DNA from: Escherichia coli
GTDB taxonomy: Bacteria; Pseudomonadota; Gammaproteobacteria; Enterobacterales; Enterobacteriaceae
Strand: one strand, 5' to 3'
DNA length: 6,064 bases
Assembly: GCF_003334385.1 (NCBI RefSeq)
Contig: NZ_QOWN01000078.1
A program made the position numbers. This document shows, in pieces, positions 3,001 through 6,000 of the stretch (the stretch's first letter is position 1; each line of letters opens with the position of its first letter).

Positions 3001-6000
3001 AAAAGAGCTGTTCGGCGGGGCAATTAAACGCCCGTGAGAGTCTGAAATAACCGCAAGCCGGAGATCAGCATCGGTCACCACAGCAGCCACTGCTTTGGCG
3101 GTACCAGTTTGTACACTTGCTTCCGGCTGGTACCGCTATTTTTACAAAACAGAGAAGAGCATCACCGGACGACGGGCTCATAACCCAATCCACCCGGGCG
3201 GCTGCCACCGCAGGTGTTCTTCTCTGTTTTGTGGAGAAACCAACCGACCTTGCAGGGTCGATATGATGAGGAGCAGCAAAATGGCTAGCGAACGCAGTAC
3301 TGATGTGCAGGCATTTATCGGGGAGCTGGACGGCGGCGTATTTGAAACCAAAATCGGCGCAGTTCTCAGTGAAGTCGCTTCCGGTGTGATGAACACGAAA
3401 ACCAAAGGTAAGGTCTCGCTCAACCTGGAAATCGAACCGTTTGATGAGAACCGTGTGAAAATAAAACACAAACTCTCATATGTTCGCCCGACTAACCGCG
3501 GGAAAATTTCTGAAGAAGACACCACCGAAACGCCGATGTATGTCAATCGCGGTGGTCGCCTGACTATTCTACAGGAAGACCAGGGACAATTACTGACTCT
3601 TGCCGGTGAACCTGACGGAAAACTCCGCGCAGCAGGTCATTAATATCGTTCTTAATTAACTGATTATTTATCTCATCACTGAATATCTTAATATAGTGAG
3701 GACTTATTATGTCTCAGAACTTAGACGCAACCGCAATTAATCAAATCCATGCCCTTATTTCTGCTCAGGGTGTTAATGAAATTATCAGTAAGATTGGTGC
3801 CGATGCTGTGGCATTGCCTGAGAATTACCGCATTCATGATCTGGAAAAATTTAATTTAAATCGTTTCCGTTTCCGTGGTGCGCTTTCCACTGCCAGCATC
3901 GATGACTTTACCCGTTATTCTAAAGATCTTGCAGATGAAGGCACCCGCTGCTTTATCGATGCTGATAATATGCGTGCCGTCAGTGTGCTTAACCTGGGTA
4001 CTATTGATGAACCAGGTCACGCAGATAACACCGCCACTCTCAAACTGAAAAAGACAGCACCGTTCTCTGCCCTGTTGTCTGTTAACGGCGAGCGTAACTC
4101 CCAGAAATCACTGGCAGAATGGATTGAAGACTGGGCCGACTACCTTGTGGGCTTTGATGCTAATGGTGACGCCATTCAGGCAACAAAAGCGGCTGCGGCA
4201 ATTCGTAAAATCACGATTGAAGCAAACCAGACCGCTGATTTTGAAGATAATGACTTCAGCGGCAAACGCTCCCTGATGGAATCTGTCGAAGCGAAGACCA
4301 AAGACATTATGCCAGTGGCATTTGAATTTAAATGCGTTCCGTTTGAAGGTCTGAAAGAACGTCCGTTTAAATTACGCCTCAGCATTATCACTGGCGATCG
4401 TCCTGTACTGGTTCTGCGCATTATTCAGCTGGAAGCAGTGCAGGAAGAAATGGCTAACGAATTTCGTGATCTGCTTGTTGAGAAATTCAAGGACAGCAAA
4501 GTAGAAACCTTTATTGGTACTTTCACCGCCTGATTTCATTACTGCAAATGCCCCTGCGGGGGCATTTATGGAAACGTAATTGACTCAATAATCGCCGGAT
4601 GGTGAGGGCTTCCTTTTACCAGAATTCAGCGCGGTGCAGCGCATATACGTGGAGAACAAAATGTCATTTATTAAAACTTTTTCCGGGAAGCATTTTTATT
4701 ATGACAAGATAAATAAAGATGACATCGTTATTAACGATATCGCGGTTTCCCTTTCAAATATCTGTCGCTTTGCCGGTCATCTTTCTCACTTCTACAGCGT
4801 CGCCCAACATGCGGTGCTTTGCAGCCAGCTGGTGCCGCAGGAATTTGCTTTTGAAGCGTTAATGCATGATGCAACAGAAGCGTATTGCCAGGACATCCCA
4901 GCTCCACTGAAACGCCTTCTTCCTGACTATAAACGGATGGAAGAAAAAATAGACGCCGTAATCCGTGAGAAATACGGGTTACCTCCTGTTATGAGCACGC
5001 CAGTGAAATATGCCGATCTCATTATGCTGGCAACCGAACGTCGCGATCTCGGGCTTGATGATGGCTCTTTCTGGCCTGTACTGGAAGGTATCCCGGCGAC
5101 AGAGATGTTCAAAGTTATTCCACTGTCACCAGGCCATGCCTACGGGATGTTTATGGAACGTTTTAACGAGTTATCGGAGTTACGCAAATGCGCATGAATG
5201 TTTTCGAAATGGAAGGGTTTCTTCGCGGGAAATGTGTACCACGAGATCTGAAAGTGAATGAAACAAATGCTGAGTACCTGGTACGTAAATTCGATGCGCT
5301 TGAAGCTAAATGTGCGGCACTGGAAAACAAAATAATACCAGTGTCAGCTGAACTGCCGCCAGCAAATGAAAGTGTTCTGTTATTTGATGCTAACGGAGAA
5401 GGCTGGCTAATTGGCTGGCGTTCTCTCTGGTACACCTGGGGACAAAAAGAAACCGGAGAATGGCTGTGGACATTTCAGGTCGGGGACCTTGAAAACGTCA
5501 ATATCACTCACTGGGCAGTAATGCCGAAAGCACCGAAGAATAAAAAATGAGCGTGATAAAAACTCATACAGGAATTGTTATCACCCGAGACGGTCCGCAG
5601 GTAAAAAAACTGCACCAGACAAAGCGGATGTGGGTCGTCGGAAAAAACGAGTTTTACCACAAAGAAACCGGACGCCGCCACTTTGCAGAAAATACTCGCC
5701 GCCGACTGCTGATCGATACCATCAAGCCTATCGAGGTGAAGCATGTTTAAACAGAACGAAAAATCTATCGCTCAAATTGCTGAGTATATCCCGCGTGCGT
5801 GCCGGGATATGCAGTTGCAGGAAGCCAAAGCACGCCTGGAGAAAAAAATTGCGCTCTATATCGATGACGGCTGTGATGCCGCCGTTCTTAACGCGGCGTT
5901 CGCGCCAGCTCTTAACAGTCATACGCGAAAGTCTTTTTTTTCGTGCATCACAGCGCAGATCCGTAAAGGAGGCAACCAGTGAGCAACATTAACTATCAGG

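Follow-up and report, generated by a model that had tools for sequence, protein, structure and literature searches.

What does the hairpin between yfdQ and yfdR do, and on which molecule does it act? The question is raised by a 6,064-nucleotide (nt) stretch of Escherichia coli DNA (contig NZ_QOWN01000078.1 of assembly GCF_003334385.1; hereafter, the window), in which the spacer between these two prophage genes contains a perfect stem-loop, denoted here H1. A sequence-only reading of the window had suggested that this stem-loop could be a partial terminator that sets the expression of yfdP-yfdQ against that of yfdR-yfdS, or else a processing or stability element. Comparison with homologous loci demonstrates that H1 is real, that its pairing is under selection, that it acts on the sense strand and independently of yfdQ, and that it must be read through.

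H1 (AAATGCCCC-TGCG-GGGGCATTT, positions 4546-4567 of the + strand) consists of arms 4546-4554 and 4559-4567 that form 9 Watson-Crick pairs, 5 of them G-C, with no mismatches, and enclose the loop 4555-4558. The predicted fold energy of the + strand RNA is -15.0 kcal/mol (z = -2.9; none of 200 shuffles equals it), compared to -13.2 kcal/mol for the - strand version. Thus, both sequence and fold confirm the perfect 9-bp hairpin, and its placement in a 127-nt spacer between yfdQ and yfdR, with both gene labels, is right as well. The description of this spacer as the only sizeable gap in the module is nearly right, as the genes after yfdR overlap, but the yfdP-yfdQ gap also comprises 65 nt. The minimum free energy fold (-17.3 kcal/mol) includes a putative lower extension of H1, in which UUUCAU (4534-4539) pairs with AUGGAA (4568-4573); the extended structure (4534-4573) begins directly 3' of the yfdQ stop codon, and support for the equivalent lower helices in relatives is weak, as many of their cells are unpaired. 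Of 5000 dinucleotide-shuffled yfdQ-yfdR spacers, 19 contain a perfect stem that reaches 9 bp or more around a loop of 3-8 nt, and among 300 shuffles of the entire window, 27 do so somewhere; the window itself contains only one other perfect stem of at least 9 bp, at 2072-2097, within the repressor gene. The H1 copy in the CPS-53 prophage of E. coli K-12 is identical (NC_000913.3, 2474869-2474890).

The evidence of selection comes from three sets of relatives, namely 80 near-identical viral contigs, diverse phages, and 80 loci from across Gammaproteobacteria, with one genome per species. Among the near-identical copies, H1 is almost invariant, with the rare stem changes producing G·U pairs, and the remaining spacer is polymorphic. 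In divergent Enterobacterales, a hairpin occupies the same place with other stems (AAATCCCCG/CGGGGATTT, TTAATTGCCCTG/TGGGGCAATTAG, TTAAGCACCGA/TCGGTGCTTAG, CAGGTGCCACA/TGTGGCACTTG, and others). For the covariation test, we used a sequence-only MAFFT alignment of 52 distinct enterobacterial relatives, without any structure fitting. In this alignment, 89.5% of the cells in the 13-pair H1 helix are paired, as opposed to 39-50% when the partners are slid, and the covariation score is 0.461, compared to 0.06-0.10 with slid partners, a value that none of 500 shuffles reaches. Changes on both sides of the helix are found at 10 pairs, and the 7 inner pairs are never unpaired. The hairpins of the relatives have predicted energies between -12 and -24 kcal/mol, and the loop varies freely in both sequence and size (3-8 nt).

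The pattern of exceptions identifies the strand on which H1 acts. Among the non-Watson-Crick cells of the core, 28 are G·U or U·G, about 2 are true mismatches, and A·C almost never occurs; because G·U is tolerated and A·C is not, H1 works as a sense-strand RNA, that is, at the level of the mRNA. In line with this, the stem that can form in divergent loci is far longer on the + strand than on the - strand (13 vs 6 or 12 vs 5 pairs, for example). Taken together, these comparisons indicate that H1 functions in the sense transcript and is neither a chance palindrome nor a DNA site. A function on the - strand, including an antisense function, is rejected on the basis of the asymmetry between G·U and A·C and of the longer + strand stems. 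We also considered a small open reading frame (ORF) within H1 (ATG at 4548, 11 codons) and rejected this candidate given that the ATG is missing from relatives, such as those with the AAATCCCCG arm. In one contig from IMG/VR (L240), H1 has grown to a perfect 25-bp stem (TTAATTACGTTGCCTTAAATGCCCC-GCATCA-GGGGCATTTAAGGCAACGTAATTAA), and the 3' untranslated region of yfdQ seems to have been duplicated there in inverted orientation.

The hairpin is present in the spacer as the sequence-only reading had it, but it is not alone: three conserved hairpins fill the spacer, forming a leader of about 135 nt (4531-4665, + strand) bounded by the stop codon of yfdQ and the start codon of yfdR. The second hairpin, H2, has an inner stem at 4592-4605 (TCGCC-GGAT-GGTGA) followed by an invariant GGG (4606-4608); its general form is TCGCC-N3-6-GGCGA, with an invariant GGGATTC next to it. 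Across 104 occurrences, the H2 arms show only four combinations, all of which pair: CGCC/GGCG, CGCC/GGTG (with a G·U), CACC/GGTG and TGCC/GGCA. The third hairpin, H3 (4631-4642, GCG-GTGCAG-CGC), is separated from the yfdR ATG downstream by 18 nt and lies just before the Shine-Dalgarno (SD) sequence GGAG (4651-4654). Its stems covary (GCGCG/CGCGC, GCAG/CTGC, GCGCT/AGCGC, GCGCCA/TGGCGC, CCGC/GCGG and others) around a conserved hexaloop, (G/T)TGCAG, that is located 5-25 nt upstream of a GGAGAA SD site. In an alignment of 68 distinct leaders fitted to a covariance model of H1-H2-H3 (R1), 94% of the H1 cells, 99.7% of those in the inner stem of H2 (two compensatory pairs), 80% of those in the outer stem of H2, which is poorly formed in the window, and 96.4% of those in H3 (compensatory changes in all 4 model pairs) are paired. 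The R1 model scores the window at 108 bits and detects 73 loci with scores of 53-148 bits, on the sense strand every time. The mean column identity of the spacer is 72% across genera in which the YfdQ proteins are 55-70% identical, and GAAGCGTAATTC, GGGATTC and AACCAAAA are invariant single-stranded motifs, in addition to the GTGCAG loop. The linker between H1 and H2 is 4-5 nt long with zero indels, and the two hairpins together span about 80 nt. The leader is present regardless of whether yfdR or another gene follows; in relatives from Proteus, Providencia, Hafnia and Serratia, H1 immediately precedes the SD site on its own, with neither H2 nor H3. An Rfam cmscan search of the whole window, with E-values up to 10, detected nothing in 4534-4660.

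Scanning viral contigs with the H2 motif, we found 58 loci with yfdQ upstream and, additionally, 11 loci that possess H1-H2-H3 but neither yfdP nor yfdQ (L172, L174, L194, L207, L214, L219, L222, L229, L236, L243 and L246). In these loci, H1 is located within the leader of the early-left (pL) transcript, 7 nt after another hairpin, H0 (GGCGG-TTGCAG-CCGCC), that has the same type of loop as H3; in the two such loci with detectable similarity, a cI-like repressor is encoded upstream. The counterpart of H0 in the window (3245-3260, + strand, CGACC-TTGCAG-GGTCG) lies 20 nt upstream of the yfdP ATG. The H1 stems of the loci lacking yfdPQ include variants that all pair (TAAGCGCCC/GGGCGTTTA, TAAGTGCCTC/GAGGCATTTA, TAAGTGCCC/GGGTACTTA), which implies that H1 is maintained independently of yfdQ. 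Given that H1 is retained, with compensatory changes, where yfdPQ is missing, the proposals that it stabilizes the yfdPQ message or sets yfdP-yfdQ against yfdR-yfdS are weakened, and this part of the sequence-only reading is undercut. From these gene contexts, yfdPQ looks like a present-or-absent cassette inserted between H0 and H1. In phage SfII (L292, 1490-1520), a deletion fuses ...GAGAAACTAACC straight onto an H1 core of the form GCCCC-TACG-GGGGC, and SfII_35, an ORF that overlaps the structured leader, may be spurious. The notion that H1 belongs to yfdQ, which was based on the presence of a hairpin after yfdQ in about 80 diverse loci and on a homology break in viral contig L024, is withdrawn for the enterobacterial family because the 11 loci without yfdPQ carry the same leader. 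The hairpins located after yfdQ in Pseudomonas, Marinobacter and Vibrio may have been acquired independently. In Pseudomonas and Stutzerimonas, the yfdQ homologs are followed by a G+C-rich hairpin with the loop CTYACCA, for example, CCGCCGGC-CTTACCA-GCCGGCGG, and then by YTCTAC without a T-run (L144, L146, L147, L149-L154, L156-L159, L161 and L165-L167); this may be a different, loop-specific element.

The H0/H3 type of hairpin recurs beyond the leader. The unit consists of a covarying stem around (G/T)TGCAG, followed after 4-10 nt by a GGAG SD site and an ATG, and is represented in the window at 3245-3260 and 4631-4642. In phages LLS and mEp460, such units precede yfdP, yfdR, xis and a gene for a kilA-type antirepressor, in both early operons (36021-36038 on the + strand and 30362-30375 and 28739-28756 on the - strand of LLS, L289; 7237-7252, 12052-12065 and, on the - strand, 921-936 of mEp460, L002). 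This hairpin, for which Rfam has no match, resembles an operator or a processing signal present in several copies.

The genomic context of H1 is that of an early transcript. The window covers the immunity and early region of a lambdoid prophage of the SfV/mEp460/LLS type, with a cro-like gene, ymfL and rha on the - strand (the pR side) and, on the + strand, a cI-like repressor (1866-2558), yfdP, yfdQ, yfdR and yfdS, continuing to ead, xis and int. H1 is therefore inside the pL operon, in agreement with the LLS study, which places the same gene cluster in the early-left operon (PMC12315714), and not at the end of a transcription unit, as yfdR-yfdS...xis-int follow on the same strand. The cistron upstream of H1, yfdQ (3709-4533, + strand), encodes a DUF2303 protein (PHROG 210), and the downstream one, yfdR (4661-5197, + strand), an HD-domain 5'-deoxynucleotidase; in the loci examined, yfdP is always directly upstream of yfdQ. 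A terminator-like hairpin (2579-2596, + strand, AGCCACC-AGAA-GGTGGCT followed by TTTCATT) is located directly 3' of the repressor stop codon and, together with an adjoining operator-like repeat, TTGC...GCAATAAA at 2614-2632, probably marks OL/pL. This repeat resembles positions 1831-1849 of the cI-cro intergenic region and suggests that pL is probably located just after cI, which would give yfdP a leader of about 600 nt. The part of this leader just upstream of yfdP (3085-3283, + strand) is highly structured (-86.6 kcal/mol, z = -5.9) and conserved in relatives; its elements are, in order, a terminator-like hairpin of 12 bp with UAUUUUUAC after it (3098-3136), an inverted repeat of 25 nt (3144-3168 and 3208-3232), and H0. 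We considered a boxA/boxC-type antitermination site (TGYTCTTYT plus a GU-rich run, 3218-3240) in this region and downgraded this candidate because the long stem formed by the inverted repeat has as its 3' arm the boxA-like string TGTTCTTCT (3218-3226; relatives have TGCTCTTTT). A scan of the + strand of the yfdQ-yfdR spacer for promoter-like sites found none. On the - strand, a promoter-like site with an extended -10 element (4725-4698, ATGTCA-16-CATAAT with TG upstream) is present in the 5' end of yfdR and faces the spacer, so that an antisense RNA ending at H1 is conceivable; the G·U pattern argues against a - strand function.

Is H1, then, a terminator? The suggestion of a partial terminator stands insofar as H1 is a G+C-rich, stable stem-loop of the sense RNA under pairing selection, but the U-rich tract of a canonical intrinsic terminator (about 7-9 nt) is not present. 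A number of observations speak against termination. A scan for consensus terminators, which requires at least 5 T in 8 positions, did not list H1. Even when the tail is drawn in the most favorable way (AUUUAUGG), the U-tract is short and interrupted: the 8 positions that follow the last G-C pair include 4 U in the window and 3-5 in 48 of the 51 relatives, and in the 8 nt after the whole stem, these counts drop to 1 and to 1-3 in 48 of the 51, respectively. The d'Aubenton-Carafa type T-score, for which an ideal run of eight U yields 5.13, is 1.71 for H1 at best, compared to 2.89 for the hairpins at 2579-2596 and 3098-3136 of the same window. Moreover, the would-be U-tract pairs in the lower stem (AU 31, UA 11 and GC 8 at one pair), and because its positions covary with their 5' partners, the selected property is pairing rather than U-richness. 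In Serratia and Yersinia, the hairpin is kept although the tails are nearly U-free, and the distance from the end of H1 to the yfdR start codon is only about 20 nt in Proteus and Providencia, which leaves no room for a promoter, so that termination at H1 cannot be efficient; together with the lack of a promoter-like site in the spacer, this means that read-through must be the rule. Finally, the supplementary tables of Adams et al. 2021 that were searched include no RNA 3' end near 2474.7-2474.9 kb of NC_000913.3, a negative that is uninformative because the supplementary table of the same study lists a Rho-dependent site within yfdP (2473888, + strand), such that the K-12 H1 site would hardly be transcribed.

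Other observations are compatible with some degree of termination. In 34 of the 51 relatives, the last G-C pair is followed by 4-5 U within 8 nt. The homologous hairpins of phages without yfdPQ have tails such as UUUAUUUA or UUUAUUAU, with T-scores of 3.4-3.6, above the 2.89 of the two terminator-like hairpins of the window. Among distant relatives, textbook-looking terminators occupy the corresponding place after yfdQ in Vibrio phage VvAW1 (GGCCCGGC...GCCGGGC-UUUUGUUAC) and in Morganella (...GGCGGCAU-UUUUAUAUUU). The GenBank record of phage Ayreon (MF807953.1) annotates the equivalent of 4534-4573 as 'terminator', an annotation for which the record offers no evidence, and in lambdoid phages the early genes generally have terminators upstream of them (PMC9378689).

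Weighing these observations, we tentatively favor a dual role for H1, as a pause hairpin or leaky terminator and, in addition, as a protector of RNA 3' ends. A hairpin with a free loop, located either after a cistron or in a leader, which is terminator-like in some lineages and read through in all, points in this direction, and the freely varying loop suggests a generic role rather than sequence-specific recognition. Under this scenario, the G+C-rich upper stem followed by AUUUAU would cause a fraction of the polymerases to pause and release the RNA, so that H1 would act as a leaky, non-canonical intrinsic terminator or attenuator in the pL transcript; the stable 9-13 bp hairpin would shield the 3' ends thus produced, or those left by processing, from 3' exonucleases; and the majority of the polymerases would continue into H2-H3, yfdR and yfdS and on to xis and int. 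We infer that H1 forms 3' ends and does so at low efficiency. The indel-free spacing of H1 and H2 suggests a single folded domain and thus weighs against this scenario. It fits better with the main alternative, which is possible but somewhat doubtful, namely that H1 is a structural arm of the H1-H2-H3 leader, which would be read by a phage or host factor or by RNA polymerase without any RNA ends being made; control would be either translational, via the (G/U)UGCAG hairpins before the SD sites, or exerted by put-like processive antitermination. Indeed, the leader shows 72% column identity across genera and invariant single-stranded motifs, H2 and H3 covary, the unit is kept irrespective of the gene that follows and of yfdPQ upstream, the GUGCAG hairpin with its SD site recurs in LLS and mEp460, and these phages have no N homolog, with a put-like RNA having been proposed for LLS (PMC12315714). 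However, H1 occurs without H2 and H3 in Proteus, Providencia, Hafnia and Serratia; its loop and much of its stem sequence vary freely, unlike those of H2 and H3; and there is a single copy of the leader per phage genome, with none in the pR operon, whereas HK022, in which the R1 model finds nothing, has both putL and putR.

An explanation that we consider unlikely is that H1 is purely an RNA stability element, that is, a barrier to 3' exonucleases that guards the RNA upstream or, after endonucleolytic cleavage in the spacer, a 5'-terminal hairpin that guards the downstream message, with no effect on transcription. In most enterobacterial loci, H1 starts 10-12 nt past the yfdQ stop codon, just outside the footprint of a terminating ribosome, and a stable hairpin of generic character (-15 kcal/mol, and -12 to -24 kcal/mol in relatives) with a free loop sequence and pairing selected along the entire stem would suit such a role. 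The loci without yfdPQ nevertheless retain H1 where there is no upstream cistron to protect, and a helix of 9-13 bp with poorly supported lower helices is shorter than RNase III needs. We regard it as very improbable that H1 acts as DNA, be it by binding a dimeric protein, by forming a cruciform, or by serving as a recombination or cassette boundary for yfdPQ. The perfect palindrome does lie at the boundary of yfdPQ presence and absence, the SfII deletion junction coincides exactly with the 5' edge of this core of G+C pairs, and in L024 the homology to the window stops right after H1. However, 28 G·U cells against about 2 non-pairs in the core are unexpected for a double-stranded site, the stem sequence is free so long as pairing holds, no partner protein is evident, and H1 is not a dispersed repeat, with a median of one copy per genome. 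Finally, although 9% of shuffled 6-kb windows contain a perfect 9-bp stem, there is next to no chance that H1 is a functionless palindrome, given its rarity in shuffled spacers (19/5000) and the compensatory conservation across Enterobacterales; this explanation is refuted by the comparative data.

A broader and rather improbable proposal is that the H1-H2-H3 leader, the (G/U)UGCAG hairpins in front of SD sites in both early operons and the structured pL leader at 3085-3283 jointly constitute a cis-acting RNA system for control of early gene expression in the N-less phages of the SfV/ST64B/LLS type, operating through processive antitermination or a dedicated RNA-binding regulator.

The window contains several further features. 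On the - strand, three Rfam matches lie at 419-506, 531-607 and 568-620: C4 antisense RNA (81 bits) and isrK (62 bits) exceed the gathering score, and the c4-a1b1 target falls below threshold. They form an antisense immunity module of the P1/P7 type, in a stretch that is annotated in relatives as one long coding sequence of the Rha family. The palindrome at 2072-2097 (TAATACTGTATGTAAAAACAGTATTA), inside the ORF of the cI-like repressor, holds CTGT-N8-ACAG, which looks like a LexA (SOS) box. For YfdQ, PDB entry 9o7m, for which we found no paper, contains 36 chains named 'YfdQ Protein' that match the family profile with an E-value of 1e-62, and a Foldseek comparison of the AlphaFold model (predicted local distance difference test score 81) with the PDB detected no significant match. 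A link between YfdQ function and H1 was considered and set aside: neither DUF2303, PHROG 210, 9o7m nor the AlphaFold model bears on the hairpin.

Of 5426 complete E. coli genomes, 2979 carry the H1 element, as do 49 phage records, among them the Shigella serotype-converting phages SfV, SfII and SfIV, cdtI, and Stx2a and Stx2c phages; CPS-53 of K-12 is also a carrier. A literature search found no paper that discusses this hairpin, which one GenBank record labels 'terminator'. As far as literature searches reach, the covariation, the three-hairpin leader, the independence of yfdQ and the recurring GUGCAG hairpin appear to be undescribed. H1 is selected at the RNA level, in line with a non-canonical intra-operon hairpin or attenuator of a phage early operon. 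The product of yfdR binds DnaA (PMC4776307). The covarying hairpin and its leader offer mutable targets for studying the timing of early-left expression, including yfdR, xis and int, in N-less phages (PMC12315714), and with them a well-studied genome gains a structured RNA that has not been described. Should H1 prove to be only a weak terminator, the result is an ordinary one; if the cis-acting control system is real, it would represent a new class of phage regulatory RNA that is present in more than half of the sequenced E. coli genomes.

Among the known regulatory RNAs of lambdoid phages, the put element of HK022 invites comparison. HK022 is also an N-less lambdoid phage. Its put RNA has two adjacent stem-loops that together measure about 70 nt; in the early-left transcript, H1 and H2 are adjacent and span about 80 nt, but the outer stem of H2 is only 80% paired and is poorly formed in the window. 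Where yfdPQ is absent, H1-H2-H3 belongs to the pL leader, and for LLS a mechanism like that of put has been suggested (PMC12315714). However, searching the HK022 genome with the R1 model at E-values up to 10 yielded no match, and the PL-proximal sequence of HK022 has no resemblance to the leader, so that homology with put is rejected. Furthermore, LLS and the 14 kb of mEp460 each contain a single full R1 match, with the pR operon giving only a partial hit of 18 bits that reflects the GTGCAG hairpin; in the window, this one copy is 1.3 kb into the operon, after two genes, and elsewhere H1 can also be solitary. The lambda nut site, with its boxA and boxB, differs in that the H1 loop is not conserved (3-8 nt) and no boxA adjoins it, and no N homolog has been reported in LLS-type phages (PMC12315714).

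The terminators of the lambda tL/tR type share more with H1, being G+C-rich sense hairpins that lie between gene blocks of an early operon, with an A-run upstream and a U-containing run downstream, such that the later genes need read-through. The differences are that the U-tract of H1 is short and interrupted (AUUUAUGG), that its A-U lower stem is selected for pairing, that the phages carrying H1 encode no antiterminator N, and that termination at H1 is putative. Repetitive extragenic palindromic (REP) elements and the bacterial interspersed mosaic elements (BIMEs) are dispersed differently: H1 occurs at a median of 1 place per genome, with a maximum of 5 that matches the number of prophage copies, and always between yfdQ and yfdR. 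An RNase III site extends over about two helical turns (~20 bp), whereas the conserved H1 helix comprises 9-13 bp and its lower helices are often unpaired. Unlike intercistronic stabilizing hairpins, H1 persists where the upstream cistron is absent. What it shares with the REP hairpins of malEFG, the early RNase III sites of T7 and lambda sib is that it is a stable intercistronic hairpin that could set the relative amounts of the messages on its two sides.

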